DNA of 64,000 nucleotides from Candidatus Omnitrophota bacterium (GTDB lineage: Bacteria > Omnitrophota > Gorgyraeia > 2-01-FULL-45-10). The position numbers were made by a program, and so were the translations under genes. The DNA lies in assembly GCA_041650935.1 (NCBI GenBank), contig JBAZKH010000008.1, forward strand, positions 8,825 through 72,824, read 5' to 3'. Numbering within the stretch: position 1 is the first letter of the stretch; each line of letters starts with the position of its first letter. Below the pieces are notes generated by a model. The model searched no databases. It had not been told where the DNA came from and saw only the letters and a program-made list of their open reading frames with translations. Below, piece by piece: positions 6,072 to 61,900 of this stretch.

Positions 6072-6094
6072 CTGCGCACCTTCTTTCCGATCTG

Positions 6095-6150
6095 TAAAAT
6101 TTGAATTTCGTATTTGTTTAGAATTTCGATATTCGTATTTCGGGTTTAAA
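6095..6150. repeat. family 2 half-element, copy F4 (reverse orientation)
   Basis: Its reverse complement reads CTTTAAACCCGAAATACGAATATCGAAATTCTAAACAAATACGAAATTCAAATTTTAC. Confidence 0.7.
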
Positions 6151-7732
6151 GTTTTACCAATTTTAACTCGTATATGTTCTTCGACCCTCTTATCTCATCC
6201 AAAACCTTCTTCGGAACATTACTATCCACATTCCAAACACTTATGGCTTTACCGCCCTTCTCTTCGCGGCCGAACGATACGCTCGCCACGTTTATCTTAT
6301 TCTCGCCTAAGATGGTACCTATGTGGCCTATTATACCGGGCACATCCTTATTGAAGACGATGAGCATCGTCCCCTCGGGAACGCAGTCCACATAAAACTC
6401 GTCGATCTTCACGATACGCGGATCGACCTTTGTGAAGAGCGTCCCGCATAAGGAGCTCTTCATCTTGTCGGTCTCGACCTCGATCACTATAAGGCTGGCA
6501 AAATCCTGCAGTTCAGCCCTCTTCGAATCTATAACGGTTATACCGCGCTCTTTTGCCAGCACCATAGAATTCACGAAGTTTACCGTATCCTGCAGTATGG
6601 GCTTAAGCATGCCTTTTATTATCGTCGCGGTAAAAGGCGACAGGTCGTACTTCAAAAGGTCTCCCACGTACGTTATCTTAACCTTCTTTATATGCCCGTC
6701 GACAAGCTGCGCCTGGATAGCGCCCATATTTTCGGCCAGACGCAGATATGGTTCAAGGACCTTATACATTTCGGGATCGACGCACGGGACGTTAACCGCG
6801 TTCTTCACTCCACAGCCGAGGAGCGCGTCACGCACCGTATTCGCCACGTCTATTGCCACATTCATCTGCGCCTCTTCCGTAGAAGCACCGAGATGCGGGG
6901 TCAACACCACTTTCTCGAGCTTCGCCAGCTTTGAGTTCGTAGGCGGTTCCTCCTCGAATACGTCCAGCGCGGCGCCGGCCACCTTACCGGACTCTATGGC
7001 CCTGACAAGCGCCTCTTCATCTATTATACCGCCCCTCGCACAGTTGACGACCCTGACATTCCGCTTCATGACGGCGAATTCTTTATCCGATATTATATGC
7101 CTAGTCTCTTCCGTAAGAGGCGTATGGACCGTTATGTAGTCGGCATTTTTGTATATCGTCTTGAGGTCGACCAGCTCTATGCCAAGCTCCTTGGCCCTAT
7201 CGGCCGAGAGGAACGGATCATAAGCCAGCACCTTCATCCCGAAAGTAATGGCGCGCTTCGCTACCTCCGTGCCTATCCTGCCCAGACCCACTATGCCGAG
7301 CGTCTTGCCGTAGAGTTCCACGCCCATGAACTTTTTGCGCTCCCATTCGCCCCGCTTCACGGAAAGATCGGCCTGTGGTATATTACGGGAGAGGGCAAGT
7401 ATCATGGAAAAAGTATGCTCCGCCGTCGAAATAGTATTACCCGCGGGCGTATTGACGACGATTATCCCCTTCTTAGAGGCCGCCGCAACATCGACGTTGT
7501 CCAAACCGACCCCGGCCCTTCCTATTATTTTAAGCCTGGCGGCGGCGCCTATGACATCCTTGGTCACCTTGGTGGCGCTGCGCACCAGCAGGGCATCGTA
7601 ATCCTTGATCACCCGCTTAAGCTCTTCGGGCGTAAGTTTCGTATTAACGTCTACTTTGAATTCTTTCTCTTTCTCCAGTATTTCGACCGCTTCTTTCGAG
7701 AGCGAATCGCTGATCAAGACTTTGAATGACAT
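6146..7732 (-). CDS. serA: D-3-phosphoglycerate dehydrogenase
   Basis: The 528-aa protein has a 2-hydroxyacid dehydrogenase Rossmann motif (GLGRIG) and C-terminal ASB and ACT domains. Confidence 0.9.
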   Translation of the reverse strand: MSFKVLISDSLSKEAVEILEKEKEFKVDVNTKLTPEELKRVIKDYDALLVRSATKVTKDVIGAAARLKIIGRAGVGLDNVDVAAASKKGIIVVNTPAGNTISTAEHTFSMILALSRNIPQADLSVKRGEWERKKFMGVELYGKTLGIVGLGRIGTEVAKRAITFGMKVLAYDPFLSADRAKELGIELVDLKTIYKNADYITVHTPLTEETRHIISDKEFAVMKRNVRVVNCARGGIIDEEALVRAIESGKVAGAALDVFEEEPPTNSKLAKLEKVVLTPHLGASTEEAQMNVAIDVANTVRDALLGCGVKNAVNVPCVDPEMYKVLEPYLRLAENMGAIQAQLVDGHIKKVKITYVGDLLKYDLSPFTATIIKGMLKPILQDTVNFVNSMVLAKERGITVIDSKRAELQDFASLIVIEVETDKMKSSLCGTLFTKVDPRIVKIDEFYVDCVPEGTMLIVFNKDVPGIIGHIGTILGENKINVASVSFGREEKGGKAISVWNVDSNVPKKVLDEIRGSKNIYELKLVKL

Positions 7733-7752
7733 TACGCTATCTCCTTGCTTTC

Positions 7753-7881
7753 TTTAAATCCGAAATCCGAATATCGAAATTCTAAACAAATAAGAAATTC
7801 AAATTTTACAATTTTGAAACACTGGAGCTTGAAAAATTAGGATTTGTTTCGAATTTCGGATTTCGCGCTTCGGATTTATCC
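7753..7881. repeat. AT-rich palindromic intergenic element, family 2, copy F1
   Basis: The left half reads TTTAAATCCGAAATCCGAATATCGAAATTCTAAACAAATAAGAAATTCAAATTTTACAATTTTGAAA, and the inverted right half ends ...GATTTGTTTCGAATTTCGGATTT...CGGATTTATCC. Confidence 0.75.
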
Positions 7882-32070: not shown

Positions 32071-32201
32071 AAGTCATTCCGCAATAAATTTTTCGCCGTC
32101 AGTCCGGCGCTTTTTCCGGCGGCCTGCAATTGATATGTTTAAGATTTTATGTCCCGCCTTTTATTTCCCGTTTCCCTGGCCAAATTTTTCGAAAACTCAG
32201 G

Positions 32202-32335
32202 AATATTATTTGGCGATGTGGCGAGCTTAGGCGTAAAAATTGCGAGGCAGCGTCCGAGCAATTTTTCTCGAGCGTAAATTTTACATGGTTAAAATTTACG
32301 CGTCCTAAGCTCACCACATCGCCAAATAATATTAG
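32202..32335. repeat. structured intergenic element with terminal inverted repeats, family 1, copy A (complete)
   Basis: It has terminal inverted repeats (GAATATTATTTGGCGATGTGGCGAGC and GCTCACCACATCGCCAAATAATATT) and two internal hairpins, AAAAATTGC[GAGGCAGCGTCCGA]GCAATTTTT and GCGTAAATTTTA[CATGGT]TAAAATTTACGC. Confidence 0.8.
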
Positions 32336-32357
32336 ACTGATACGAAAAATTATCTCC

Positions 32358-34301
32358 TTATATCAATTTTCGAACTGCCTCGAAAATCTTCTCCGCATCC
32401 TGCGGAAGTTTCACCGGGATCGTATCGCGCCATGCCTTTTCCAGCGCGGACGATAAACCGAATGCCTCGACGATAGTAATGTAACCCCTGTCCGACAAAC
32501 CCTTCAACGCCCGCTCATGCTTCGTCATAGAGTCTTTTTTCTTCGCAAGCTTGAAGACTACCACCTTCTTGCCGGCGCTGATCGCTTCGGAGATCATCGA
32601 GATCGATTCTTCCGAGACTACGGCAACCTTGCTGAGCGCGAGCATCCCGCTCACCGCTCCGTCAAGGTTTCGCTCGTTCGCAATGATTAGCAGTTTGCAC
32701 GCGGGATTACCCTGCAGCCTCTTCTTCAAAATATCTTCGACTGCCGGAGAGGTGCGTCTCGATGTCGTAACCAAAAGCTCTACGCCGCGAGACCCGATAA
32801 AGGATGTTAAACCATCGAGCGCCAAATTTATATTCTCTGCCGTCAGGGAAAATTCCGGGTTGCCGCCTCCTACAAACAGGCTTACCGCTTTGTCTGTCCC
32901 GATACCGGTGCTGCCCTTCAACTTTTCGCCGTCCCTTTTAAGGGACTCGTCGTCTACAAGGTTAGGCGCGAGATCAGTAGTAATAACGTTCTTTGCCTTC
33001 AAAAGATTGTCGTGTTTTGGGATGACCGCTAGATCGAATTTCCTAAGGCTCATCGGTATACCGGGCTTCATAACGACTATATTCCGCGCGCAATTCTCCT
33101 TCGACATGAATATATTCACCGGCGCAAGGCTCGACCCGCACGAGACGACAAATTCCGAATACGTCTTCATAAGCGTATCATACGTCTCTGCGGCAAGGCA
33201 TGATCTCATTATCCCCATACGGCCGTGGCACCGCCAGGTCGCGAAGACCGATGCGGCAGCAAGAAGCGCTCGGGAAAATCCGCTCTTATATTTCACATCT
33301 ACGACGACGACCCGCGTATCCGCTATCTTATACCCCTGGGTCGCCCGGGCGCGCTTTAACTGCCGCACAACAGCCATGGACTGGTTCAGGTGGCCGGCCT
33401 TGCCGTCATTAAGCACAAGTACCGTCCTGACCGGCGTCGATTTCCACCGCTTGTGGAGCCAGAGCCACTGGTCGGGATATTTCCTTATATACGCCTCAAG
33501 AAGCCGCGCGAACTTCTGGACGTTCTCCCTTACATCGCCGGGACTTTGAGTCTTCTGAAAATCTATATACTCTTCAAGGTAAAGTTTATGGTACGGCCCG
33601 CCCGTCCGCACGATGAAATTCGGCAATATCAGGGAGCCGGAGTGCTTGGCTATCTCGAAGGCTCCCGTATGATAAGACGCGGGTCTGCCGAAAAAATCTA
33701 CGAAGATACCGTTCTTGCCGGCGTCCTGGTCGGAGAGTATACCGACTATATTTTTATCACGGAGCGCCTTCAATATATTTTTGACCTCCATCCCCTTCCT
33801 TATTACCTTACAGCCGTTCGATTCCCGCAAAAGGTTCAAGAGCTCGTTCAAACGCTTCATCTTCTGCTCTCTGACAAGGACAAGGATAGGAAAACCTTCG
33901 ACGGAACTGACCAAGCTGGAGAGTTCCCAGTCGCCGAAGTGCGCGGTAAGGAGTATCGTCCCCCTGCCGGATTTGGCGGCGTTACGGATACGCTCCATAT
34001 TCATAACCTCGACATATCTGTCGACGTACCGCCGGTTGACCTTCGTAAGGTTCAGGATCTCGATGAAGGTCTGGACCATATTGCGGTAAACGTTTTTGGT
34101 AATGCGCCTCAGTTCTGCCGGAGACTTCTCTTTTGCGAATGCACTCTTCAGATTTGCGTACGCGACGACCCGCCTCGCCTTATTAAAGAAAAATACGGCA
34201 TCCCCGATGCGCCTGCCAAACCACAGCGACGCGCTGACCGGCACAAGGCCTAGTATCTTATTAAGCGCCCTTACGGCTATATAGGCTGCGTAATCTATCA
34301 A
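32358..34301 (-). CDS. fusion protein: LpxL-like lipid A acyltransferase domain plus ELM1/DUF1022 (GT-B-like) domain
   Basis: The N-terminal roughly 300 aa form a Lip_A_acyltransferase domain (HFGDWE). The C-terminal roughly 340 aa form an ELM1-family domain. It overlaps the 3' end of lpxK by about 40 nt. Confidence 0.7.
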   Translation of the reverse strand: MIDYAAYIAVRALNKILGLVPVSASLWFGRRIGDAVFFFNKARRVVAYANLKSAFAKEKSPAELRRITKNVYRNMVQTFIEILNLTKVNRRYVDRYVEVMNMERIRNAAKSGRGTILLTAHFGDWELSSLVSSVEGFPILVLVREQKMKRLNELLNLLRESNGCKVIRKGMEVKNILKALRDKNIVGILSDQDAGKNGIFVDFFGRPASYHTGAFEIAKHSGSLILPNFIVRTGGPYHKLYLEEYIDFQKTQSPGDVRENVQKFARLLEAYIRKYPDQWLWLHKRWKSTPVRTVLVLNDGKAGHLNQSMAVVRQLKRARATQGYKIADTRVVVVDVKYKSGFSRALLAAASVFATWRCHGRMGIMRSCLAAETYDTLMKTYSEFVVSCGSSLAPVNIFMSKENCARNIVVMKPGIPMSLRKFDLAVIPKHDNLLKAKNVITTDLAPNLVDDESLKRDGEKLKGSTGIGTDKAVSLFVGGGNPEFSLTAENINLALDGLTSFIGSRGVELLVTTSRRTSPAVEDILKKRLQGNPACKLLIIANERNLDGAVSGMLALSKVAVVSEESISMISEAISAGKKVVVFKLAKKKDSMTKHERALKGLSDRGYITIVEAFGLSSALEKAWRDTIPVKLPQDAEKIFEAVRKLI

Positions 34302-35307
34302 CCAGCTGCTCCTTCCCTGAAATAATATCCATTTCTATGACAAGCGTCATCACGGGATAGTCCCCAAAAGATAACGACATCCTGCGTAATTTGACTTCGT
34401 CCTTCTCGGTCGTAAGGATAAAATCGAACGATCTCTCATCGCATCTCTTCACGATAGGTCCGGTATCGGCCTGGCTGTAATTATAGTGATCGGCGAAGAC
34501 GATCTCTTCGGCGATGTCGGCGCCCAGGCGGCGGGCAGTATCGCTAAAGTAGCCCGGATCGCCTATACTCGACAAAAGAATTACGCGCTTACCCTTAAGA
34601 AAGTTTAAAGCGAGCTCCTTCCGCGCCTTCAGGTCGTAGAGACAGACGGGCTTGTGAAGCGCTTCGAGAAAGACGAGTGCGCCATTCAGTCTCTTTAACT
34701 CATCCTTCACCTGCACCAGCGCCGGACCCGGCTTATCGACTTTTGTAAAGACTATTACCGATGCGCGCTTTACGGCCTCCACAGGCTCCCTCAATATGCC
34801 CCGAGGGAAGAGCCGGCCGTTGCCGAACGGGTTGCGGGAATCGACCAGAATTATATCGAGATTGCGCTCGAGCTCCCAGTGCTGGAAACCGTCATCCAGC
34901 ACCGCGGTATCGCTGCCATAAAGCTTTATCGCCTTGTGCGCCGACTTCGTACGGTCTTCGCCGACAAGGATGGGCGTATCGGCAAGTTTGCGCCTGAGAA
35001 GAGTCTGTTCGTCCCAGCCGTAACCGCGGATAAGAACGCTCGCCTTCTTGCCAAGCTCCTCGTCGAGCAGCTTCACCAGCCGTATCACAAATGGTGTCTT
35101 GCCGGTACCGCCCAGAGTCAGGTTCCCGACGGATATTATCTTAAGCGGCACCCGGACGGATTTGAATATATGCGTCTTGTAAGCCAACCGCCGCAGTATA
35201 AGAGCAGCCCCGTACGCAAACGACAGGATGTAGAGAAAGAATTTTATAGGCGCATATATAGCGTCGTCACGCCTATCGGTCATCAATGAATATATGAATT
35301 CACGCAT
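34261..35307 (-). CDS. lpxK: tetraacyldisaccharide 4'-kinase
   Basis: It has the LpxK P-loop (ISVGNLTLGGTGKTP). The start is probably MREFIYSLM, 2 nt after the waaA stop. Confidence 0.85.
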   Translation of the reverse strand: MREFIYSLMTDRRDDAIYAPIKFFLYILSFAYGAALILRRLAYKTHIFKSVRVPLKIISVGNLTLGGTGKTPFVIRLVKLLDEELGKKASVLIRGYGWDEQTLLRRKLADTPILVGEDRTKSAHKAIKLYGSDTAVLDDGFQHWELERNLDIILVDSRNPFGNGRLFPRGILREPVEAVKRASVIVFTKVDKPGPALVQVKDELKRLNGALVFLEALHKPVCLYDLKARKELALNFLKGKRVILLSSIGDPGYFSDTARRLGADIAEEIVFADHYNYSQADTGPIVKRCDERSFDFILTTEKDEVKLRRMSLSFGDYPVMTLVIEMDIISGKEQLVDRLRSLYSRKGA

Positions 35308-36577
35308 TGAGGAATACCGCCATTTCGCCCAAGACCCGTCCCGTAGCGCCCATATTGTCGACGACAACCTGTTTGGCGGCTCTGCCCATCTCAAGGCGCC
35401 GCTTTTCATCCGTCAGCAGGTTGTAGAGGGCGGGTACCAGGTCATCACCGCTATCGACCTGCGCGGCCGCGGATGAGGCCAGAAAGGCCTCGGCTATATC
35501 CTTAAAATTGAACATATGCTGGCCGAATATTACGGGCTTCTCATGGACAGCAGGCTCTATCGGGTTCTGTCCGCCGTGTTTTATAAGGCTGCCTCCGACG
35601 AAGACTATGGTCGCTATAGAATAGAAGTCTCCCAGGCGGCCGATGGTGTCGAGAATGTAGATCCGTCGTTCGTCGTTCGTCGTTCGTCGTTCGTCGGAGC
35701 CGGATAACCGGACCGGCTGGAAGCCGAGTTTCTTTGCGGCCTCGGCGACCTCGCCCGCTCTTTCGATATGGCGGGGAGCGATCAGCAGTTTAAGCTTCGG
35801 GAAATCTTCGATTAAATCTTTATATGCAGCGATAACGGCGCATTCTTCGCCCGGATGCGTCGACCCTGCCACTATAAGCTCGTCTCCCGTAGCCATCCCC
35901 AGCTCTTTTTTTAATACGTCGCCGCTTATCCTGCCCGCCTTGACCCGGATATCGAATTTCATATTCCCGGCGACCTTTACTCTTTCGGGCCTGGCGCCAA
36001 GAGCTATTATCCTGTCCGCGTCCATCTTCGACTGCATGCAAAGAACGTTAATGTTCCGCAATATCTTCCTTAAGAACCGGCTTACCATCTCGTACTTCCC
36101 AAAAGACCTGTCCGATATCCTGCCGTTGATGAGTATGGCCGGTATGGCGCGGCGTTCTATCTCTTTTAAAAAATTAGGCCATATCTCAGTCTCGACCATG
36201 ATGTACATATTAGGCCTCACTATACCTATAACTTTCTTCACTATAAATGAAAAATCGAGCGGAAAATATATCACAACGGCATCATCCGCAAATAACTTCT
36301 TTGCCAGGTCGCCGCCCGTCTTAGTTATCGTCGAAAAAACTATCGGCCGCGAGGGGAACTTCTCGCGCATAAGCGGGATAAGGCTCCTGCATAACGCAAC
36401 CTCCCCTACGCTCACCGCCTGAATCCATATCGCGCCGCGCGCCTTCGCAAGCGCCGCGCGCTTCGCCCTGCCGTATACGCCGAACCGCTCGAGAAAATCC
36501 CTGTGCAGTTTGCCTTTGAATATCAGCGTCGGTAGATAGAAGATCGAGAATAACGCGAATCCTATGTCGTACAACAT
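35300..36577 (-). CDS. waaA: 3-deoxy-D-manno-octulosonic acid transferase
   Basis: The 425-aa protein is of the KdtA family (GT30). It contains the GTCGTTC heptamer repeat. Confidence 0.85.
   Translation of the reverse strand: MLYDIGFALFSIFYLPTLIFKGKLHRDFLERFGVYGRAKRAALAKARGAIWIQAVSVGEVALCRSLIPLMREKFPSRPIVFSTITKTGGDLAKKLFADDAVVIYFPLDFSFIVKKVIGIVRPNMYIMVETEIWPNFLKEIERRAIPAILINGRISDRSFGKYEMVSRFLRKILRNINVLCMQSKMDADRIIALGARPERVKVAGNMKFDIRVKAGRISGDVLKKELGMATGDELIVAGSTHPGEECAVIAAYKDLIEDFPKLKLLIAPRHIERAGEVAEAAKKLGFQPVRLSGSDERRTTNDERRIYILDTIGRLGDFYSIATIVFVGGSLIKHGGQNPIEPAVHEKPVIFGQHMFNFKDIAEAFLASSAAAQVDSGDDLVPALYNLLTDEKRRLEMGRAAKQVVVDNMGATGRVLGEMAVFLNA
35665..35696. repeat. heptanucleotide tandem repeat (GTCGTTC) of about 4.6 units inside the waaA coding sequence
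   Basis: The sequence is gtcgttc gtcgttc gtcgttc gtcgttc gtcg. In the reading frame it encodes DERRTTNDERR. Confidence 0.85.
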
Positions 36578-36854
36578 CTTACTCCTAAATTTTTACGGGT
36601 CCTGCCGCAAATTTATGGGTCCTGTCCTCGGTCGCCTTTCGGTGCTCCTTCGGCCTCGCGGGTTTACAATATCGTGAGAAACTAGGCGCGTATCTAAGTG
36701 CCGCCAGAATTGCTTACGATATTTTAAGTCTTAAGCAGTGTCGCCCTGACAATGGCAATTCTAAGCGGCGGCACCCCATCCGCTTCGGCCTTGTGCGCAC
36801 CTCAAGGCTGGACCTCGGCCACCCATAAATTTGCCTAGCCTAGTTATCCATAAC

Positions 36855-36880
36855 GTAGCTACCGTTTAAACGTCAGCTAC
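36855..36880. repeat. GTAG-N6-TTTAAA-N6-CTAC palindrome P1, at the 3' end of the HNH gene
   Basis: The sequence is GTAGCTACCGTTTAAACGTCAGCTAC. Confidence 0.6.
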
Positions 36881-36883
36881 TTA

Positions 36884-37555
36884 TTACTTGCTTGCTTTGA
36901 AATGTTTTTCTAGCGGTATTTCATCAAGTATTTCGGATAACAAATTCCGTTTTTTCCTATTGCAATCAAAGCAAAGCAATCGTAAGTTATCAACAGATGT
37001 CGTACCGCCTTTCGAAAATGGAATAAGATGATCAAATTCCATCTTATTGTCAGGTACGGGCTTAAAACATTTTTGACAAATCTGCCCATCTCTTCGAACC
37101 ACTTTCAACATAACATCCCTAGGAATCTCTCGTGATAGACGCCTTATTTCTTTTGTTTCTGTGAATGGTTCGGCGTTAAAATATACGGGACAAATATGTC
37201 CAAAGATTCTACAACTAATTTCTTTTAATATTCCAGAGATTTCAACAGGGTAATCACTCGTCTTAAAATCCAAAATACATTTAATAAAAAATTTCTTACG
37301 ATTTTTATCTAATTTTTTACCACCTTGAAGTCTTCCCGTAGAAATACACTCTTTTAAGTATTCATTATGCTCAATAGCCTCACTACGTATAGGAGGAATT
37401 ATAGGGAATTGTTCAACTAAAGGTCCATAAGGACAGTATTTTATTTCCCAGCACGGTTTACAAACTAGCGATTGTTTATATCTTACTATTTTAACAATCT
37501 CTGTCGAGGGTGTTTGTATGGAGAATCCCAGAACTTTTTTTAGACACTTTTCCAT
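36884..37555 (-). CDS. HNH endonuclease with a Cys-rich N-terminal region (orphan, in an AT-rich islet)
   Basis: It has a C-terminal HNH motif (DHLIPFSKGGTTSVDNLRLLCFDCNRKK). The gene is about 35% GC, against a neighbourhood well above 50%. Confidence 0.7.
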   Translation of the reverse strand: MEKCLKKVLGFSIQTPSTEIVKIVRYKQSLVCKPCWEIKYCPYGPLVEQFPIIPPIRSEAIEHNEYLKECISTGRLQGGKKLDKNRKKFFIKCILDFKTSDYPVEISGILKEISCRIFGHICPVYFNAEPFTETKEIRRLSREIPRDVMLKVVRRDGQICQKCFKPVPDNKMEFDHLIPFSKGGTTSVDNLRLLCFDCNRKKRNLLSEILDEIPLEKHFKASK

Positions 37556-37610
37556 ATTTTACGAACGCTTTCCACTCTTGTTTTCCCAGTAAAATTTTTC
37601 GCATCCGTTG

Positions 37611-37742
37611 AAATGTGATGTGGCGATGTGGTGAGCAGGGCGTTAAAAGTTCGAGGCAGCGTACGAGAACTTTTATCGAGCGAAATTTTCACATGGCTGA
37701 AAATTTCGCGTCCTAAGCGAGCCACATTGACACAGCACATTT
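37611..37742. repeat. structured intergenic element, family 1, copy B
   Basis: It has the same architecture as copy A, with hairpins TAAAAGTTC[GAGGCAGCGTACGA]GAACTTTTA and GCGAAATTTTCA[CATGGC]TGAAAATTTCGC, and compensatory stem changes relative to copy A. Confidence 0.8.
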
Positions 37743-37772
37743 ACTGCTACATCGAAAAATTTTACGCACTCC

Positions 37773-38645
37773 TTACGCCCGCGGATGAGCTTTGTCGTAT
37801 ACCGTCTTCAGGCGGTCCATCGTCACGTGCGTATATATCTGCGTCGTCGACAAATTCGCGTGCCCCAGAAGCTCCTGAACGCTGCGCAAGTCCGCGCCGC
37901 GGTCGAGCATATGCGTCGCAAACGAATGGCGCAAGCTATGCGGCGATATGTGCTCCGACATACTGCATAGTTTTATATACTTATCGAGTATGCGCCGCAC
38001 ACTCCTGTCCCAGAGGCGCGTCCCGTTCTTCCCGAGAAAGACCGCTTCCTTATCCTTAACCTTCATCCCTTCGCGTTTATCGATATACCGCCTGAGCGCC
38101 GAAACGGCGGGTGAACCTATCGGCACCATCCGCTCCTTCGAGCCCTTACCGAAGACCTTTATGACCTCGCCGATCAGATCGACATTCCTCATATTCAGCC
38201 CTACAAGCTCGCTCACCCGGATGCCGCCCGAGTATATTGTTTCGAGGATAGCCGTGTCCCTGAGGGCGAAGACGTCATCCCCTCCGGGGCATTGGAGCAG
38301 TCTCGCCACCGCTTTTTCGTCCAGGACCACGGGCAGCCTCTTATCCAGTTTGGGAGTAGAGACGGCGGTAATCGGATTCGCCTTGATATGCCCTTCGCGG
38401 TACAGGAACCTGAAGAAGCTCCGTAAACTCGCGAGTTTGCGCGCTATCGTCCTCTTCGCGTAGTTCCGCCCGCGCAATTCCGCAAGAAATTTGCGCAATA
38501 GAAGATGGTCGATCGCCGAGACGTCCTTATCGCCGAGAAACCGGCTGAAAGATTCCAGATCTATCCGGTAATTCAGGATAGTATGCGGCGACGAATTTCT
38601 CTCGACATCGAGATAATTTATGAACTTTTCGATAAATCTCTGCAT
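37773..38645 (-). CDS. xerC: tyrosine site-specific recombinase XerC/XerD family
   Basis: It has the catalytic region (HSLRHSFATHMLDRGADLRSVQELLGHANLSTTQIYTHV). It lies immediately downstream of topA, as in dprA-topA-codV neighbourhoods. Confidence 0.8.
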   Translation of the reverse strand: MQRFIEKFINYLDVERNSSPHTILNYRIDLESFSRFLGDKDVSAIDHLLLRKFLAELRGRNYAKRTIARKLASLRSFFRFLYREGHIKANPITAVSTPKLDKRLPVVLDEKAVARLLQCPGGDDVFALRDTAILETIYSGGIRVSELVGLNMRNVDLIGEVIKVFGKGSKERMVPIGSPAVSALRRYIDKREGMKVKDKEAVFLGKNGTRLWDRSVRRILDKYIKLCSMSEHISPHSLRHSFATHMLDRGADLRSVQELLGHANLSTTQIYTHVTMDRLKTVYDKAHPRA

Positions 38646-41632: not shown

Positions 41633-41700
41633 CGAGCGCAATTTTCACATGGCTGAAAATTACGCATCCCTGCGAGATGCCAACCCCGAGAGGGGATTCC
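41633..41700. repeat. family 1 partial copy D plus an adjacent GC-rich hairpin
   Basis: The partial copy reads GCGCAATTTTCACATGGCTGAAAATTACGC and is followed by CCCCGAGAGGGGATTCCCCTCGGG. Confidence 0.6.
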
Positions 41701-43932: not shown

Positions 43933-44709
43933 TCAAAACAATCCTCCAAACAAAAGACTTATAATCTTATTTCCGAAAAATATCGAAACCAAAGCCGCCG
44001 CCGAAAGGAACGGGCCGTAAGGAATGATCTCCGCGCCTTTTCTCAATTTTAAGATTATGCCGGGCACTGCGCCCAGGAAAGGCGCAATGAAGAATGTCAA
44101 AATGACCAGCTTCAACCCTATAAAAGAACCGATCATAGCCATCAGCTTGACGTCCCCGCCGCCCATCGCCTCTTTTTTGAATGCCGCCTTTCCTATCGCT
44201 CCCATAAAGTATATACTCCCTGCCCCGGCGAGCGCACCCGCAGCCGAGCCTATTATGGCGCGGGAGCGCATCGTCTCATTGAGGATAGACGGAAAGATAA
44301 AAGCGAGTAAAAACCCCGCCGCGAGCCCGCCAAGCGATATCTCGTCGGGTATCTCCTGTATCTCGAAATCGACAAAGGTCGCGACTATCAGGCCGCAGGT
44401 CATTATAGAGTATGTAAAAAATTTCGGTGTAATACAGAACTTTAAAAAGAGCGCTGTAAGCACAAGGGCCGTCAACGCCTCGACTACCGGATACCTTAAC
44501 CGTATCCGCGCTTTACACGACCTGCATTTGCCGCCCAGCGCGGCGTAGCTAAAAACAGGGATATTGTCATACCAGGCGATGGCCTTCTTGCACTTCGGAC
44601 AATGGGACGCGGGAACGACTATGGATTCCCCTTTAGGCATCCTGTAGATGCATACGTTAAGGAAACTGCCGAGAACCAGTCCGAACAGAAAAACCGCCAT
44701 TACTGCCAT
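43933..44709 (-). CDS. prepilin (type IV leader) peptidase, A24 family
   Basis: It has an N-terminal C4 zinc site (CPKC...CRSC) and multiple TM segments with the A24 architecture. Confidence 0.8.
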   Translation of the reverse strand: MAVMAVFLFGLVLGSFLNVCIYRMPKGESIVVPASHCPKCKKAIAWYDNIPVFSYAALGGKCRSCKARIRLRYPVVEALTALVLTALFLKFCITPKFFTYSIMTCGLIVATFVDFEIQEIPDEISLGGLAAGFLLAFIFPSILNETMRSRAIIGSAAGALAGAGSIYFMGAIGKAAFKKEAMGGGDVKLMAMIGSFIGLKLVILTFFIAPFLGAVPGIILKLRKGAEIIPYGPFLSAAALVSIFFGNKIISLLFGGLF

Positions 44710-44714
44710 AGATT

Positions 44715-44807
44715 ATTAAATCCGAAATTCGAATATCGAAATTCTAAACAAATACGAAATCCTAAATTCCAATTTGGAAAATTCAGATTTCGCGATTCGG
44801 ATTTATC
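44715..44807. repeat. family 2, copy F2
   Basis: It reads TTAAATCCGAAATTCGAATATCGAAATTCTAAACAAATACGAAATCCTAAATTCCAATTTGGAAAATTCAGATTTCGCGATTCGGATTTATCC. Confidence 0.75.
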
Positions 44808-47272: not shown

Positions 47273-47305
47273 AGTCTCACCTCAAAATAAATTTTTCGCT
47301 GTAAC

Positions 47306-47440
47306 AATAATATGATATGTCAATGTGGTTCGTTCAGGACGCACAATTTTCAGCCATGTGAAAATTGTGCTCCGTAAAAGTTCTCGTACGCTGCCTCGAA
47401 CTTTTAAGGCCTGCGCTCACCACATCGCCATATCACATTC
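47306..47440. repeat. structured intergenic element, family 1, copy C (core inverted)
   Basis: It is the reverse complement of copy B over about 125 bp. Its second hairpin is GCACAATTTTCA[GCCATG]TGAAAATTGTGC. Confidence 0.8.
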
Positions 47441-48475: not shown

Positions 48476-48580
48476 GACTTTAAATTCGAAACTCTAAATC
48501 CGAAATCCTAAACAAATACCAATTTTCAAAATTCGAATTTGTGATTTGTTTCGAATTTCGATATTTGAATTTCGTGCTTA
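48476..48580. repeat. family 2, copy F3
   Basis: It contains CTAAATCCGAAATCCTAAACAAATACCAATTTTCAAAATTCGAATTTGTGATTTGTTTCGAATTTCGATATTTGAATTTCG. Confidence 0.7.
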
Positions 48581-49093
48581 TTCATTTACTTCCGGTTTTC
48601 CCTCAACCTTCAGTCCTTTATCCTCCGTGCTCATCGCAACCCTGCCGGTCCTCACCACCTCCAATATCCCGAAAGGACGCAGGAGTTCGAGAAGCCCATG
48701 GATCTTTGTCTGGTCGCCTACGACCACGATACTGATCGACTTAGCCCCGGCGTTCTCTATCCCTGCCCCGGCCGATTCTATGGCCTCCAGGACCTCTTTC
48801 CTGTTCTTTGCCGTCACGGAGACCTTTAAAAGAATGAGCTCCCTGTCTATAAATTCGCCGTCCTTGAAATCGACGACCTTTATGACATCGATAAGCTTAT
48901 TGAGCTGTTTCTTTATCTGTTCGAGCGTCCGGTCGTCGCCCTCGACGACTATCGTCATCCTGGAGACGGTCGGATCCTCTGTCTCGCCGACAGCGAGCGA
49001 GCTGATATTGAATCCGCGCGCGCTGAATAGCCCGGATATACGCGCCAGGACGCCGAACTTGTTCTCGACTAAGACTGATATTGTATGCTTCAT
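48578..49093 (-). CDS. ilvN: acetolactate synthase small (regulatory) subunit
   Basis: It has an ACT domain. The start MKHTISVLVENKFGVL is preceded by GAGGG. Confidence 0.85.
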   Translation of the reverse strand: MKHTISVLVENKFGVLARISGLFSARGFNISSLAVGETEDPTVSRMTIVVEGDDRTLEQIKKQLNKLIDVIKVVDFKDGEFIDRELILLKVSVTAKNRKEVLEAIESAGAGIENAGAKSISIVVVGDQTKIHGLLELLRPFGILEVVRTGRVAMSTEDKGLKVEGKPEVNE

Positions 49094-52909: not shown

Positions 52910-55900
52910 TTACGCAGCCCTTAGAAGAACTTCCTGTAAATGCTTAAGGCGGATTTGTTCGCCGGTATCGGCCGGTATGATAGGTTTGAGGATAAAGTTC
53001 AGCTTATTTATGAAGTCGACGGGGTTCTCTTTAAGCTCTCTTAATGGGATATACCTGCTTGCGCAACGCTGGGTCAAAAGACTATATAACCTGTAGAAAG
53101 ATTCGTTGTCATCGTTCAGGTAGGCCCTGCCCACCCCTATCAATCCTTCCAGATTGGTCAGGTTCCCCGCCTTAACCCTCTGACCATCAAGATTGATATA
53201 AATAACCCTGGCCTTTAATCTGTTAAGTTCTTTTATCTGGGCTTCGTTCAAACGCTCCAGGGGCAGGATCGTAACGGTGTTGTCGTCTATATTCTCACGG
53301 GCAAAAGATACAAGTTCGTCTATATTATCCTCGAAACTCACCCTGTCTTTTGTCAGCTTCGATATCTCCGTAAGGAATGGCTCCTGGCCGGGCGCGGCAT
53401 ACCCCGACCATGCTTTAATCGTGTAATCCTTTTCCGAGAGGCTCGCCTTTCCATATAGATAATCGACTATATGAAGCTTGATTGCTTCTCCGGCAAACGG
53501 GCATATCGCCGGAGGGATATTGCCCTGGCGCAATAACGGCTTATCATCTCCTTTGCCGGTCTTCAGTTTTACGCTGATCGCCACGTTAATTAAATTACGG
53601 GCATGTTCCCGCGTCTTATTATTAAGGTCTATCATCATATCGGAAAATTTATACTTTCCGTTTACATTCACAAATATACCGAGTTCCACCAAAGGCTTGA
53701 CCGCCTGATTATAAACCCTGGCCGCAAAATGTCGCTTGCCGCGGGGCTCGGTCATGCCGGGGCAGATATCGCTTTTAATGCTGAATCCTTCGCCCAGCGC
53801 CTTCTCAAGCAGCCCCCCGGGCCCGTTATCATATTTTATCATCATCAAAAACTCCGCCGGGTTACCCATTAGCCATCGGGAAACCGCGGGATCTTGAGTT
53901 GCGGAATCTTTCGCGGGATCTTGCCGGGTTATGTCATGTGGTCTTCCCGGAATCTTACCCGGCAAGGGCACGCTGCCCGGAATCTTACCCGGCAAAGGCA
54001 TGAGTTGCGGAATCTTGCCGGGTAAGGTCATGTGGTCTTCCCGGATCTTACCCGGCAAGGGCATGTCACCCGGCGCAGGCGCATCTGTGGACTTTTCACC
54101 AAAACGATCTAAGCGTATATACATTTCATCGATCAAACCCTCAGACTCTTTGATATCGACTGCGCCGGGATACATTGCCGCAAACTGCCGGTGAAATTTC
54201 TGAGCATCGCCGGTCGACGCCGGATGAGTGCGGTAATATTTCCCATCTCCGTTTTTCTTCATCTCTAAAATAGCCGCGCTCATAAGTGAATAGGCAACCC
54301 ACCGGTATTGTCTTCTTACATACATACCGTTCGACTCAAAATGATCGCCAATTAGTTTATAATCATAAAGCCCGACCGGCTCATCACCGTAATATCCGAT
54401 GACCGCAATATATTCTCCGATATCCCATTCCCGCTTTGTTTCGCTCGGCTTCTGCGCAGCCTCATGCGAAAGAGCGGCAAACCAGGCATTGCATTCTTCG
54501 ATCAACGAATCCAACCGCACGTCAGATTTTTGTTCGTCTGACAGGTTTTTATACAAGCGGAATGTTACTGATGGAAGAACCTTTTTAGAGGTATCCGAGA
54601 TTAGTCCATTCTGCTGCGCCTGCCCACCGCTCGCAAAATACGGTTCGCCGCCGGCTTGCTTGATTACAGACATCTGACGCTCATCTGCCAGCGTCTTGCC
54701 GGGTACCGGCATGAGTGTAGCTTCGGCATCCGCGGAATCTTTCGCGGAATCTTGCTGTGCGGAATCTTGCCGGGTAAGGTCATGTTGCCTTCCCGGAATC
54801 TTACCCGGCAAGGGCACGCTGCCCGGAATCTTGCCGGGTAAGGTCATGTTGTCTTCCCGGATCTTACCCGGCAAGGGCATGTTGGTATCCAGAGCGTCAC
54901 GTTTTGCGTCCCCATCTTCCTGCGGGCATTCTCCTGCAAGCGTTGCTAACCTTGCTTCAAAAGAAGATTCACTTAAGTTTTCCAATAGATAGGTCAGCTG
55001 TAAATTGTTCGGATGCCGCACAAGCTCTTTTCTGATTGCCGTTTCGACTTCGCGAGGAAATATCTTAGCGATCTCGACAAGGGCCGAATACGCACAACTG
55101 CTCGCATGATCTGGAGGATAACCTACGGCAAATATTAAATCATCTATCGCAGATCTGCCGAGAGCTATTATCTGCTTTTTCAGGCCTAATCTCTTATCTG
55201 CATCAGCATTATCCAACTTACTAAGTAGATCTTCCGTTTTCAGGGACGTGCCACTTTGGGACATTTCGCTATCCGCGTCGGCCGCACCTTCATCTAGCGC
55301 AACCTTTGTCCCATCGGATTGGACGGCACCCACTGCAGAAATCAGCTCCCATTTATACTCGTTTTTCCTTACTTCCTTAAAATCAAATGCCGCGGCAATT
55401 TTGCCGATCCATCCTCCATCCGAAGTATCTATAGCTTCCACAGATCGCAATTCCGGCAATGCTCTTAACCACGATAAAGCAGCAGCAAATAGCTTTGTGC
55501 CTACGCCCGCCTTTTGATAAGATCCCCGCACCGTCATTTCATCTATAAACCCTTCCCCCGCGTCATCTGTATGGCTTACTATCGCATATCCTATAACCTC
55601 ATTATTATTTCTCGCCACAAAAACTTTCCCCGGCCTCATCCACTTGCCATCCATTATCGACCTAAGGTAACGATTAGAAGATTCTGCGTAGGAAGGATGC
55701 ATATTACCGCCCGTAAGATAACCTTCTTCCCAAATTTTAGTAATTGCACCTATGTCGCCCGGATTTGCCGGTTCTATAATAGGCTCTGCGGGTCCTAGGG
55801 ACGGCTCTACCGGTCGCGCGCCTTGCTGTACGGCTGGGATGGCACCTTCTGGACCGTCCTTGTATTCCGCACCGCTCGCAAAATGTGGCTGGCCGCCGGC

Positions 55901-58900
55901 TTGCTTGATTACAGACATCTGACGCTCATCTGCCAGCGTCTTGCCGGGTACCGGCATGAGTGTAGCTTCGGCATCCGCGGAATCTTTCGCGGAATCTTGC
56001 TGTGCGGAATCTTGCCGGGTAAGGTCATGTTGCCTTCCCGGAATCTTACCCGGCAAGGGCATGTCACCCGGCGCGTCCATTTTTGACACGTCCCCTTTGT
56101 CAGCAACCCCGTCGTTTCTAACCTGGTTAGATTTGTCAGGTTGCGCGGGTTGCTGCGCCATCCTCTTATTTCTCTCGTTAAGATATTTCCACCGTTTAAG
56201 CATTTCGGTATCGACATGGGGGATAATTCCATTTATACTATACCGTATATCAGGATAGGGGCGGAATATGTCCGATTTCACTCTAAAAATATCAAACTTA
56301 GAGATGCTTTTCAAAACATCGGGCGAGGCATTTTTTATAAAAAATTTCAGGCTCATGCCCGAATCGCCATATAACATAAGCATTGCCAGGGACACAAATG
56401 TCATCCCATAACCATGCTGCCGGGGCAGATTTGGATATATTTGGTTAATTTTCACAACGCAGCCTTGTGGTGTTATTATTCTAAGCGGACAAGATAATCT
56501 TCCGCCGTCCCGGAATTTATTTTTATCAGAATTATGTACAAAAACGGCAAACTTTGTATTCTTATCATATTTAATCCTATCTCTTTCATCTTCCGATAGA
56601 GGCAAATCGTCATCATCTTCCCATCTCGCAAAACTTATATAATAACCCTGGGCAAAAAATTCTTCTATCCTTTGATTTAAGAGTGCTCTTTGTACTAGAT
56701 ACAAATCTGAAGGTGAAACTGTCCCTATTCCTGAGATTAAACCTGTCCCCCGGGCCGGATATAACAGCGGTTCCGAACTACGCGGAATGGTTTCGCCTTC
56801 GTCCTTCGGCGCTACGATGCTCTGCTTAGGCTGATTGGACCTGGCATCCGTACGATCACAACGGCTACCCACAATTCCCGAATAACGATATTCCTTAAGA
56901 GGCTCGGCGCTAAAGTATTTCTTCATAACATATGGAATAAAATGGAATCCGTCCGGCGCATACACCTCTTCGGTGGCAATCGCTTCTACACTCCATCCCG
57001 TATAATTCCGCTCGAGCGTATTTGCCAAATTCCCGAAAAATTTCGATACCAGACGGGATCCCTGCATACCTTCATCGATGGAAAGCCTGTCGATTTCCAT
57101 CATCTCCATGTCGGCATGCACCCTGAGAGCAAATACGAACTTAAGGCTTTCGTTAGCCGGGCGATAATGCCATATAAAATCTGCCCTGGGGTCAATGCGT
57201 TCGGCTTTGTCTATGACTATCTTATAGTCGATGACAGCGCCTCCCTCCGAAACGGTGGAAATGGCCGCTGCTACATACTCACCGGCAGGCACTTCGGCCA
57301 ATGCCTTCTTAAACTCCGGCAGACCCTGGCCTATCTTTTCCTGGATGCTGATGATTCGCACCTCTCTGCCATCGTTAAGATCGCTAAATCGTTTTAACAA
57401 CTCTGTTCCGGCAAGAAGCGATGTCAGGTTTATGCCTTCCTCCGGAGGCACGATGCTCTGCTTCCGCTGGTTAAACCTGGCACTCGACTGGCTCCGGCCA
57501 TGGCGGCCGCCTCCGAACTGCCTCTGCCACGGCTCCGGCGAAACATTCCGCGCACCCGCTATCTCTAAGTCCAGCGGTTCGATTTCCGGAGTAACGCCTC
57601 GTTGTACGGGCGGTGTCGCAAGAGTCTTCTGCGCAGGCGCATCGGCCGCATTTGTAGCAACATCCTTATTTCTAACCTGGTTAGATTCGCCGGGTTGCGC
57701 GGGTTGACCCGGAACATTGCCGGGCAAGGGCATGTCGGCATCCGCGGAATCTTGCCGGGTTATGTCATGCTGTCTTCCCGAAATCTTACCCGGCAAGGGC
57801 ATGTCACCCGGCGCGTCCCTTTTTGACACGTCCCCGCTAACTATGCGCTCTCCTTGCTCAAAAACGCAACCTGTTTCAGCGAATGATTTTAACAATGATC
57901 TGGTTATCTTGTTTTTTGTCTTTGGAATCAAATATTTCGGAATAGGCCTAGTCTCGGAGTATGTAAAATTGATAGCAACGGGTTCTATTCCAAAGTTAAA
58001 AAGCATGCCAACAAGTTCAACAACCCTGCGATTAATAGCCGGATCGGTAACCTCCCCCTCCTCAATAGGCGCGATAGCGTCATAGTCGATCGTAATTACC
58101 GCCGGCCCGGTTACCCTGCCCCTTAACGCTTTTATCGAATCAAAGATATTGGTTTTGCCGTAACATTCTATATCTTCCGGATTGGGGCGATATAACAGGG
58201 TCGTTCCGTCATCAACAGCCCTGACCCATATTCGGCGACCCGTGCTAAATCCGCCTTTCCAAAGCCTGCGCATCCAGTTACCGCAACTCAAAAGCTTAAC
58301 ACTCGGAGCATTTGCAGAATCCGGATGATGGTCAATATTTATTATAGTGGTATTTTTATCGGCAATGCCTTGTTTCTGCAGTTTCTTAACCCATCCAAAC
58401 ATCTCACGGTGGTTATTACACACCTTTACCGGTATAGTAACATCACCACGCCTTAACCACTTGACCTTCCCAAATTCTTTCACCTGCATAGCGGAATCTT
58501 TCGCGGAATCTTGCCGGGTTATGTCATGTGGTCTTTCCGGAATCTTGCCCGGCAAAGGCATGAGTTGCGGAATCTTGCCGGGTAAGGTCATGTTGTCTTC
58601 CCGGATCTTACCCGGCAAGGGCATGTCACCCGGCGCGTCCATTTTTGGCACGTCCCCATCACCCCTTTTATTCCCGCTGTTCTGCCTCTTCCATGCCTCG
58701 AGAGTATCTTTATCTACGGGAGGAAGCGCGCAATGGATATCATGCGTATTATCAAAATCCTCCCGGCTGTTGATCTCGATAGCATCCATTTCGGATAAAC
58801 TCTGGTACAATTTCGGCCTTGCGCAATAGATCGAAAATCTCTGTCTCACGTTCTCTTTGCCGGTAAGCAGGAATAACGCTACAGCCAGTGCGATTCGGCC

Positions 58901-61900
58901 GAATTGTTTGCCGTCCCGCAGCATTTGCGGAGAAAAACCTTTCAGCACTACGCTTCCGTCGCGCCTTACAAGCAGGTCAAAGCTTCCTTCCCAAGAGGTA
59001 TCCCTGAAATATTTCCCCGCTTCCGACTTTGACGATCTATAGTGCCTGACATATACCGGATTCCATACTCCGGGCTTCTGGATAGCGCCCCCTTCCGTTT
59101 CGATATAATAGCCGCTGCCTAAAAATGCCTCGACCTTGCTTCGCAGTGGTACAGGCGGAGGTGCCGCCGTTTTGCGCTCGTCAACAGGGGATAAGCTCAA
59201 AATACCTCTGCGGTTTTTTCCTTTCCGTCTATCTTTGACACTTCGCGCTTCAGATATAACCTTTACCCTATCGATCGCAAGATTGACAAAATCATTATGG
59301 TTAGCATAAAGGATAGGCCTGTTTCCATGAAAATCGACCATTAGCCACCTGGCGTTTTCGACATATTTCCCTGCCGGCCGCGGTTCCGGCAATTTCTGAT
59401 ACTCTTTCCTGGTAAGATGAATGTGCCTCACCACAGTTTCTATCCATGCATTGTCCGTATTCCTGGCGTCATCTACATACCCGCGGTATAATTCGACCGC
59501 CTTACCGGCATCGATCTTTATGCCGGTCTTCTTCTCGAGTTGTGCGGAGAGCGCCGCTACTATATCATTTTCAGCCGCCATCATTCCTCCGGGTATCGCC
59601 CATTGGCCGCAGTCGGCGCGTTTTATAGAGAGCATCTGCACCCTGCCGGGCTCGCCGTATGTCACGATCAGATCGACTGCAAAATTCGCACCCCATTTCC
59701 CGAGGACACCCCGGCCTCTAAGACCCGTCCTCCCGCGCGGATTGAGCGGACGTTTTTTATCATCCTCACGCACCGGCCCTTCATAGCTGGTAAGCACGCG
59801 CCCTATCTTAGTAATATCCTCAGGGTCGGCGTAACCGTCCGGATTACGGGTCACGTCATTCGCTAACACTTCCCTATCTACATAATATTCAGGGTTATAT
59901 TCCTTAAACGGGAAATCCCACGACACCGCATGCGAAGGGACAGGATAGCGGAAAGGATAGATAAAAGGGTTTTCACGCGCTTCCTTTAGCATTAATGCGG
60001 CAGACCTGCGTACATCTTTAAGGAATTCCCTGCGCCCGGTGTCGCGTTCCAACGTATCAAGCACGCCAAGTGTGCAATTTACCTCTCTCACAATATATGC
60101 AAGCGTTTCGTTCGCCAATCGCCTCATGTAACGCACCTGGTATTCCTGGTCCTCGGCGCTGACATGCCGGCATACGGGCATGCTGGATCCCGTAAGGTAT
60201 CTGCAAAGATTTTCGATAAACATGTACGGATCTCCGCGCCATAGTTCCATCAGGACCAGCTTCCGCTGGAGATGGACCGGCAGGACCCCTGTCTCGCTAT
60301 GTTGAACGGCAATTACGCACTCTTCGGTCCGCGAAAAACAGTCTTTAGCCTCCTGGGGACTATTATTTATATTGAACCAGATGCCGAGCAGTTCAAATAT
60401 TTCGGCAGTTTCTCTAAAAGCAGCCTGCGCATTAACATCTCCGGGCGGATAGGCGGACGGGTATCGCTTCCTTAATTCATCATAGCTTCTTTTAGTTTCC
60501 GCATATTTTTTGTTCAATATCATACGAAGCGCTCCGCTTCTTCCAAGCATGCCAACAACTTTTTTAGCCCGCCGGGGCGGGATAATCTCTTCTATCGCCT
60601 TAACCCTGTTCAGGTCGCCGGCATCAAGCCCCAGGTCTTTCTTCAGTGTCTCAAATAGGCGGGCGCCGGGAACTTCACCTCTATGCTCTAGCGAATACGG
60701 CTTGACGTAACTCCAGAGTTCCGATATCCTTTCTTCCCGCGTCTGTTTTCTATGCGCAGCTTCAGGTTTTTTCGTTACAGAGCCGGAAAGTATTGCGCTG
60801 GGGGCGTCGAGCGGCTTCACACTATGAGACGCGTCTTTTTTGGCCTCACTTTTCGCGGAATCCTGCTGCGCGGAATCTTTCGCGGAATCTTGCCGGGTTA
60901 TGTCATGTGGTCTTTCCGAGATATTACCAGGCAAGGGCACGGTGCCCGGAATCTTGCCGGGTAAGGTCATGTTGTCTTCCCGGATCTTACCCGGCAAGGG
61001 CATGTCACCCGGCGTGTCCATTTTTGGCACGTCCTTCTCATCGCTGCCATCACGTTTATAATGCACCACGAGCGGCGCCCAAAACGCGAACATGTTGTAA
61101 AAACCGTGGGTAATAATATTCGCTAGAAGGTGTATCCTGAAGGCGTATACGGCACTACCCGCGGCCGCCGCCAGCATGATTATATTGGGAGCGTCAAAAT
61201 AGATAAAAACAAGATACGGTATTCCCGCCAGGACAGCGGGCATCGATAACCATATAACACATATCCCCGTAAAACGGGTCAGCCAGTGATACCATCTCTC
61301 GTTCTTATGTTTTTTAAAAAGGCTCGGTAGATTGAAGATATTGGCCAATTCATCGCACTCGACAACCGCCGCGTACCAGCTAACCAGGAACCTCTTGGTT
61401 AGCTTCGAGCGATCTTGCCATCTCCAGGATGGGTAAGTCCTAAAGAATCGTACGACACGCCTTAGAGGAGATTGTAAAACCGGGCTGGCAGCGCCTTTCG
61501 CTTTAATCAAACCTTCTTGAGTTCTTCTTTCTTCGTCATACCTGCCGGGATGGAGAACTATCTCCGTAAGGTCCCGCATAAACTTCCGGCATTCCAGGCG
61601 GTTCGATACGCCATCCAATTTATAGTTATCGAAATGTTTCAATATTTCGGGCTCTGGGACACTGTCGCCTATGAGAGCCTCCAGGCCTTCTACAAAATGC
61701 TTCTCGAACGATTTCCTGCCGTCACCGCCATTACGCGACAAGATAAGATTACTTATAAGCTGGCAGCGTCTATATGGGTCGCTGCTGCTGCGCGCGATCT
61801 TAAGGTAAACATTCATAAGGCCTTCATTCTTTATATCGTAGTCTATATCCGAGATCCGTTCGTAGAGACTGAATGCCATCCTTAGGGTAAACGGGTCGTC

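Follow-up and report, generated by a model that had tools for sequence, protein, structure and literature searches.

A stand-alone HNH gene with a Cys5His N-terminal module, probable cargo of the xerC-waaA gap in Omnitrophota

The DNA analysed here, a stretch of 64,000 nucleotides (nt) from a Candidatus Omnitrophota bacterium (assembly GCA_041650935.1, contig JBAZKH010000008.1, positions 8,825 to 72,824; hereafter the window), carries a stand-alone gene for a predicted HNH nuclease between waaA and a gene for a XerC-like recombinase (Table 1). The whole neighbourhood lies on the minus strand, in the order lpxL-Elm1 fusion, lpxK, waaA, HNH gene, xerC-like recombinase, topA, and dprA. The HNH gene has a GC content of 0.339 and a GC content at third codon positions (GC3) of 0.259, against 0.52-0.57 (GC3 0.64-0.70) for its six neighbours, and its GC is the lowest of all 672-nt segments in the 64 kb (z = -4.8; 0.06% of the segments are equally low). 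Its product of 223 amino acids (aa) occurs, 100% identical, among the proteins annotated for a Candidatus Omnitrophota metagenome-assembled genome at NCBI. An initial annotation of the window had described an AT-rich open reading frame (ORF) of this length with a Cys-rich N-terminus and a C-terminal HNH motif, and each of these traits was recovered in our analysis.

The C-terminal part of the protein matches the Pfam profile HNH (PF01844) almost from end to end (model positions 1-46 of 47; E = 7.5e-14; score 52 bits, cut-off 21.4). Across 30 aligned homologues, to which the statements on residue conservation below also refer, the four catalytic residues are invariant, and the [CxxC]2 zinc site (C160-x2-C163 and C195-x2-C198) is kept, position 195 being either Cys or His across the family. 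The catalytic residues D175/H176/N190/N199 and the zinc ligands C160/C163/C195/C198 align with D53/H54/N68/N77 and C38/C41/C73/C76, respectively, of Gme HNH (PMC3765158). Among the PDB sequences it is also Gme HNH that comes closest to aa 132-208 (E = 1e-6; 4e-9 in a profile search). With the three features that define the superfamily in place (profile match, catalytic residues, and zinc site), the domain is, by sequence, a member of the HNH superfamily; its motif is strictly the H-N-N variant, and intact. The initial annotation had named a disrupted HNH motif as one of two observations that would overturn its reading; all catalytic and zinc residues are present.

Ahead of this domain lies a module of about 128 aa whose six Cys/His residues (C32, C35, C41, C115, H120, and C122) are invariant, so that the Cys-rich N-terminus noted earlier is a property of the family. 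The best-conserved stretch of the alignment, which has 46 invariant columns, is likewise N-terminal and reads [ILV]CKPCWE[LI]KYCPYGPLVE.FP, followed later by C.[VI]FGH.CPV. Members of a short subfamily have only about 20 residues between the two Cys knuckles, and we therefore take the six Cys/His residues as one module and aa ~55-112 as a variable helical insert. When aa 1-150 alone served as query against 1.84 billion representatives, 425 matches were obtained; all ten scanned matches longer than 240 aa also contained the HNH domain, and the module always precedes it. No match to the module was found in Pfam, NCBIfam, PADLOC, PHROGs, or the PDB sequences (profile search included), nor did Foldseek return one from PDB or BFVD, and our literature searches turned up no account of the family. 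AlphaFold2 predicts aa 1-120 to be all-alpha, mostly with a predicted local distance difference test score (pLDDT) of 85-96 (66-72 for aa 31-50). The Cys/His pattern suggests that the module binds metal. It may be a zinc ribbon of the CxxC plus CxxxxH kind described for the ZR-HNH nickases (PMC3592412), since C32xxC35 and C115xxxxH120 fit, by Cys/His pattern alone, the patterns listed for these enzymes. Alternatively it may hold an iron-sulfur (Fe-S) cluster, a lead offered by its two Cys-Pro pairs and the C-x2-C-x5-C spacing. The cluster motif of EndoIII is C-x6-C-x2-C-x5-C, which the C-x2-C-x5-C and C-x6-C of the module recall, again as a lead.

With waaA as a probe we retrieved 11 Omnitrophota relatives that keep the order dprA-topA-xerC-waaA-lpxK-lpxL (L012 lacks the upstream part, at a contig end). 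None of them has an HNH match at the syntenic locus, and the width of the xerC-waaA gap differs widely among them (Table 1). The four long gaps have a GC content of 0.35-0.44, against ca. 0.46-0.51 in their loci, and hold unrelated cargo that is always co-oriented with the flanking genes. Across the 12 genomes sampled, the fixed core-gene pair xerC/waaA encloses five different cargo sets: three of the four long-gap relatives have nuclease- or toxin-type cargo, two cargoes are of unassigned function, and the sites of the distant relatives are empty. The closest relative, L013 (89% aa identity in XerC and 90% in TopA), carries a different cargo, which places the arrival of the HNH gene after the split of the two lineages. 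The only close homologue, P0002 (80% identical), has another upstream neighbour, a gene of 489 aa or more. Alien composition, absence from the site in the 11 relatives, and the other context of P0002 together bear out the horizontal acquisition that had been proposed; the synteny comparison suggested at the time, in which relatives could have shown universal carriage, found the gene at the site in 0 of the 11. Hence it is very probable that the gene reached the hotspot as cargo by horizontal transfer and that it codes for an intact HNH nuclease. As a side observation, the three unassigned cargo ORFs in L012, L013, and L017 could be new defence candidates.

We set the edges of the low-GC insert at the end of a repeat shared with relatives (left) and at the start of an element shared with L014 (right). 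No convincing terminal direct or inverted repeats and no target-site duplication were seen around it, and the window has no tRNA genes, hence no tRNA integration site. Among the ORFs of the islet there is neither a methyltransferase nor a credible immunity ORF, the small ORFs being out-of-frame overlaps of the HNH gene or of the repeat; the statement that no partner gene is evident can be extended to ca. 70 family loci, over which none recurs. The word orphan, applied to the gene earlier, is apt as regards a partner gene but not as regards the protein. A promoter and terminator scan found no sigma-70-like promoter upstream of the ATG (matches fall only within the ORF, at chance frequency), and it did not call the small hairpin just past the stop codon, possibly a terminator that came along with the insert. 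The short motif GTGAAATGTTCGTCA is conserved 20-50 nt upstream of the ATG in L004, L094, L095, and L105, whose contexts differ, and the similar GTGGAAAGCGTTCGTAA lies at 37556-37580 of the window; the motif may serve as an operator or promoter and travel with the gene.

On the xerC side, the insert is bordered by a dispersed structured repeat (family 1) with further copies in the window and in L012, L013, L014, and L017, including the same post-xerC position. The repeats of this family are long, palindromic, and intergenic, with AAATTTT-rich closing stems, and they occupy syntenic sites after xerC and after lpxL. The cargo in every relative starts just past the closing stem of the repeat, CGAAAAATTTT, and the gap of the cargo-free L015 and L018 folds, wholly or for the most part, into a single long hairpin whose stems are of the same AAATTTT type. 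On the waaA side, the structured region has a minimum free energy of -115 kcal/mol (z = -4.8). Its element of ca. 235 nt is 79% nt identical to one at the same position in L014, where the flanking genes are only 64-72% identical; RNAalifold gave 49 pairs with 3 compensatory double changes and 0 broken pairs, the apical region being variable. Rfam held nothing relevant for either flank (whole window at the gathering threshold; the 1.5-kb locus at E <= 10), and the element was not found beyond the window and L014 in the sequence compared, which included about 80 other family loci. It is kept beside other cargo and the remaining HNH loci lack it; it therefore does not belong to the system of this gene. 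The same two border elements enclose different cargo in the window and in L014. Both structured flanks that had been reported earlier are thus present as described, but they do not belong to the mobile unit, since both occur in relatives without the HNH gene. The 235-nt element could be an unclassified leader or small RNA of the lipopolysaccharide operon, or a structured recombination site.

Table 1. Positions of the features in the window, of the xerC-waaA gap and its cargo in relatives, and of genes beside other family members
Feature	Sequence	Positions	Strand	Remarks
Stand-alone HNH nuclease gene	window	36884..37555	-	complete ORF, ATG start, 223 aa
HNH (beta-beta-alpha-metal) domain, aa 160-204	window	36944..37078	-	catalytic D175, H176, N190, N199; structural zinc C160, C163, C195, C198
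N-terminal module, aa 1-128	window	37172..37555	-	knuckles C32-x2-C35-x5-C41-P and C115-x4-H120-x-C122-P; helical insert aa ~55-112 between
Low-GC insert, ~750 bp	window	36828..37582	.	ORF with ~25 nt upstream and ~55 nt downstream; approximate
Small hairpin just past the stop codon, GTAGCTGACGTTTAAACGGTAGCTAC	window	36855..36880	-	palindrome and fold; no U-tract
Dispersed structured repeat (family 1) right after the xerC stop	window	37583..37771	.	resident; left hotspot border; fold z = -2.6
Further copies of the repeat	window	32182-32351, 47289-47439, 41633-41669, 25019-25055		
Copies of the repeat	L013	3645-3726, 10225-10427		
Structured element, ~235 nt, just upstream of waaA	window	36590..36827	-	resident; not part of the insert
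Counterpart of the 235-nt element	L014	5740-5954		79% nt identity; wider span 5738-5990
waaA (Kdo transferase)	window	35300..36577	-	right flank of hotspot; Pfam Glycos_transf_N, E = 3.8e-60; synteny
xerC-like tyrosine recombinase	window	37773..38645	-	left flank of hotspot; Pfam Phage_integrase and SAM_1; dprA-topA-xerC synteny
xerC-waaA gap	L019, L020, L040			29-37 bp
xerC-waaA gap	L026, L036			149-159 bp
xerC-waaA gap	L015, L018, L016			253-451 bp
xerC-waaA gap	L017			1127 bp
xerC-waaA gap	window			1195 bp
xerC-waaA gap	L012			at least 1690 bp
xerC-waaA gap	L014			2199 bp
xerC-waaA gap	L013			2410 bp
Gap cargo	L014	3953-5662		570-aa AAA_15/AAA_21 ATPase; PADLOC AriA 7.9e-23, GajA 6e-19, Old
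Gap cargo	L013	3798-4580, 4817-5524		NYN nuclease and ORF without family assignment
Gap cargo	L012	140-835, 988-1263, 1260-1688		unassigned ORF, HTH_17, and Fic/Doc (PADLOC PDC-S23, 1.5e-20)
Gap cargo	L017	5224-5973		250-aa ORF without assignment; judged secreted by eye only
Neighbours of family member	L001			HTH_3, PDDEXK_5, transposase fragment
Neighbours of family member	L004			DDE transposase, Mrr_cat, HicA
Neighbour of family member	L008			Transposase_20
Neighbours of family member	L011			integrase, resolvase
tRNA-Ser upstream of family member	L184	5726-5814		
tRNA-Ser upstream of family member	L186	5995-6079		
tRNA-Ser upstream of family member	L110	4850-4940		
Clusters of 29-nt unit	window	53912-54067, 54758-54883, 56003-56065, 57708-57805, 58502-58627, 60881-61006		
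Second AT-rich repeat family	window	6084-6157, 7752-7819, 44709-44768, 48477-48589		both orientations
Lipid A acyltransferase/ELM1-like fusion	window	32358-34301	-	647 aa

The protein belongs to a family of more than 1300 homologues (clusters at 90% identity; 425 representatives at 50%), the best 120 of which are all full length (201-273 aa); apart from P0002 these are 51-61% identical to the window protein, and over the full-length homologues as a whole the identity is 45-61%. The source names include Omnitrophota, Roizmanbacteria, 'Patescibacteria group', and other uncultured bacteria, and gene exchange between Omnitrophota and Patescibacteria has been documented in groundwater (PMC12455944). 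No full-length copy was found in IMG/VR (2.9 M viral contigs), INPHARED (50,697 phage genomes), or PLSDB (72,556 plasmids), where matches were confined to the HNH domain. Neither all-against-all clustering of 544 flanking ORFs nor Pfam and PADLOC scans of 112 immediate neighbours (ca. 60 loci) revealed a recurring neighbour family. The defence-type genes among these 112 are AriAB (PARIS) and RT-TIR, twice each, and RT-Toprim, GajB, and PDC-S68/S02, once each; TIR and integrase genes are also present. HicA/HicB genes lie near some family members; resolved loci often have mobile or defence genes (examples in Table 1), and other resolved loci are without them. There is no conserved non-coding element common to the family, short flanks being kept at the subfamily level only. 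Three Patescibacteria-like loci (L184, L186, and L110) have a co-oriented gene for tRNA-Ser immediately before the HNH gene. The public gene call of L186 reads through this tRNA, and L184 and L186 have dnaG-rpoD within a few kb.

When compared with known systems, the protein would appear to work most like a solitary restriction enzyme made of a recognition domain and an HNH domain. The Type IV enzymes McrA and ScoMcrA share this plan of N-terminal recognition domain and C-terminal HNH and are likewise solitary, without a methyltransferase; several family members are labelled 'McrA' by the Joint Genome Institute, and the HNH part aligns with E. coli McrA (6GHC, E = 4e-5). However, only the HNH domain is similar, the all-alpha, Cys-rich N-terminus having no match to modified-DNA readers in Pfam, NCBIfam, PADLOC, PDB, or Foldseek. 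The McrA-N, SRA, EVE, and SBD readers have folds unlike it. Gme HNH (Gmet_0936, PDB 4H9D) and the ZR-HNH enzymes (N.phiGamma group; PMC3765158, PMC3592412) have the same D-H...N...N set and [CxxC]2 zinc site, and the latter carry extra Cys/His knuckles (CxxC, CxxxxH) beside the HNH domain, which our protein resembles in its Cys/His pattern; in contrast, the Cys5His module with its helical insert has no sequence or fold match to either, and the gene is flanked by xerC and waaA, with no terminase, cos site, or prophage, and without a full-length copy in the phage collections. IscB and Cas9 have the same D-H...N...N type of HNH sequence, whereas our protein lacks RuvC, the bridge helix, and PLMP, and no guide RNA goes with it. 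A Type II restriction-modification system was rejected as well: there is no adjacent methyltransferase, and the PADLOC REase_II matches cover the HNH region only. The protein therefore falls outside the McrA, Type II, homing, IscB, and phage ZR-HNH groups, each of which has one or more defining features that were looked for here and found missing.

The site itself resembles the core defence hotspots that were described between conserved genes of Pseudomonas aeruginosa (PMC10250203), with which it shares fixed core genes and variable cargo of lower GC (0.34-0.44). Unlike them it is tiny (one to three genes, 0.7-2.4 kb) and belongs to an uncultured phylum, its borders are structured intergenic repeats and not tRNA or att sites, and its cargo is always co-oriented with the operon. 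An integron cassette was considered and, judged by recombinase type, synteny, and cargo layout, discarded: the recombinase (290 aa) is of the housekeeping XerC type and keeps the dprA-topA-xerC synteny, and there is one cargo per site with no repeated attC-like unit after the ORFs.

The reading we favour, to which as a whole we give an even chance, is that the stand-alone HNH gene is a recent single-gene cargo of the xerC-waaA hotspot, probably a defence nuclease; for the defence function by itself our confidence is even, or a shade below. In such a scheme the N-terminal module would recognise a general property of DNA, such as a modification, damage, or an unusual structure, rather than a sequence, as its invariance over hosts with a flanking GC of 0.26 to 0.67 suggests, and it would then position the HNH domain to nick or cut. 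The result would be a solitary, methyltransferase-independent, Type IV-like protection that spares the DNA of the host. Expression would likely come by read-through from the xerC operon, since the insert has no recognisable promoter and the operon is co-oriented. The earlier suggestion of a minimal defence or toxin nuclease seems plausible in the light of the cargo found in the gap of relatives (OLD/GajA/AriA-like, NYN, Fic/Doc) and of the PARIS, DRT, and Gabija neighbours of some family members. Several observations weigh against this reading. PADLOC has no model for the family, its matches covering the HNH domain only, and AlphaFold2 models the HNH part poorly (pLDDT 36-56). The counts of defence neighbours are raw and not scaled to a background rate, and most immediate neighbours at the ca. 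60 loci are housekeeping genes (ArgJ, CTP synthase, Hsp70, aminotransferases). At the 79 of 91 family loci with flanks usable for GC comparison, the GC of the gene (0.30-0.61, mean deficit 0.04) follows that of its flanks (r = 0.83), and the deficit of 0.17 in the window is among the largest; in most genomes, therefore, the HNH gene is an old resident and here a recent one, which fits a cellular function too. Finally, the nearest solved relative, Gme HNH, prefers DNA with apurinic/apyrimidinic (AP) sites (PMC3765158).

This last point leads to an accessory repair or damage nickase, a minority possibility in our estimate, in which the Cys module, possibly with an Fe-S cluster of the EndoIII/MutY type, senses damage and the HNH domain nicks, the gene having been acquired but for genome maintenance. 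Gme HNH, with the same D-H-N-N set and Cys4 zinc site, is a weak Mn-dependent nickase for which a role in repair was proposed (PMC3765158); conservation within the family is extreme, the GC of its genes goes with that of the host, and many neighbours are housekeeping genes, two Patescibacteria-like loci lying near dnaG-rpoD. Nevertheless, a patchy distribution with absence from the syntenic site in all 11 relatives and a foreign composition here count against it, the other cargo of the site is defence- or toxin-like, several members lie in mobile or defence contexts, and the module has no sequence or fold likeness to any solved repair enzyme in the PDB. The proposal of a selfish element akin to homing endonucleases is not supported: a free-standing enzyme that cleaves xerC-waaA sites lacking its gene, so that repair copies the gene into them, seems improbable to us. 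A single gene with very short flanks, variably present at one site and built on a classical homing fold, with short conserved flanks that travel with it in some subfamilies, would suit such an element. Yet the gene is intergenic, outside any intron, intein, or phage, and absent in full length from the viral, phage, and plasmid collections; the ca. 70 family loci lie in unrelated contexts with no common target gene, the same gap takes up unrelated cargo, Pfam detects no DNA-binding module of the NUMOD, IENR1, or AP2 type, and diverse target sites would demand a recognition domain that varies, whereas this one is invariant.

Nor are we inclined to see in the protein the toxin of an addiction or abortive-infection module, with a small ORF, an RNA, or a structured flank as antitoxin, a reading that we likewise hold improbable, and slightly more so. 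The pair of HTH and Fic/Doc genes at the same site in a relative, the HicA/HicB genes near some members, and the RNA-like flanks speak for it, but over the ca. 70 loci there is no conserved small ORF or adjacent gene and no family-wide non-coding element, both structured flanks also occur in relatives without the HNH gene, and the small ORFs of the islet are overlaps. Of negligible probability is a miniature RNA-guided nuclease of the IscB/OMEGA kind with the 235-nt element as its guide. The best NCBIfam match is indeed the HNH part of IscB (E = 3.7e-10), and a structured element with compensatory changes adjoins the gene; however, that match reaches 39 bits against a cut-off of 175 and covers the HNH region only, 223 aa hold neither RuvC nor PLMP, and the 235-nt element is present in L014 without the HNH gene and absent from about 80 other family loci, a distribution that effectively refutes the idea.

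Elsewhere in the window, a 29-nt unit, CCCGGAATCTTACCCGGCAAGGGCATGTC, is present in 22 copies, arranged head to tail in six clusters (2-5 copies each) at a spacing of 30-35 nt. Larger repeats of 92-202 nt surround the clusters, which have no spacers and are therefore not CRISPR-like. A second AT-rich repeat family, AAATTTGAATTTCG...GAATTTCGATATTCG, occurs at four places. Beyond lpxK lies the fusion of a lipid A acyltransferase (Lip_A_acyltrans) with an ELM1-like glycosyltransferase-type domain, which is 67-75% identical in relatives.

The catalytic part of the protein is ordinary; what is new is the N-terminal module and the family defined by it. The module is a well-conserved domain of no known kind joined to a nuclease, in a family without a Pfam or NCBIfam model and without a solved or fold-matched relative. 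The locus is a clean, small insertion hotspot flanked by core genes in the Omnitrophota, a phylum with almost no experimental genetics, and a place in which to seek defence genes; the case also illustrates gene flow among co-occurring ultra-small bacteria. A broader proposal, which we regard as doubtful, is that the family represents a new class of single-gene nuclease immunity, largely in uncultured ultra-small bacteria (Omnitrophota, Patescibacteria), in which an invariant, previously undescribed Cys5His sensor (possibly [4Fe-4S]) licenses an HNH nickase, with the xerC-waaA gap, between its structured repeats, as a miniature cassette-exchange hotspot. On that proposal the module would be a domain of a new kind that reads or senses non-self or abnormal DNA. 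Should the protein be only a zinc-ribbon nickase, the finding would be routine. Should the module instead sense by way of an Fe-S cluster or redox state, or read modified DNA in a new way, it would matter to the fields of restriction, defence, and DNA repair.

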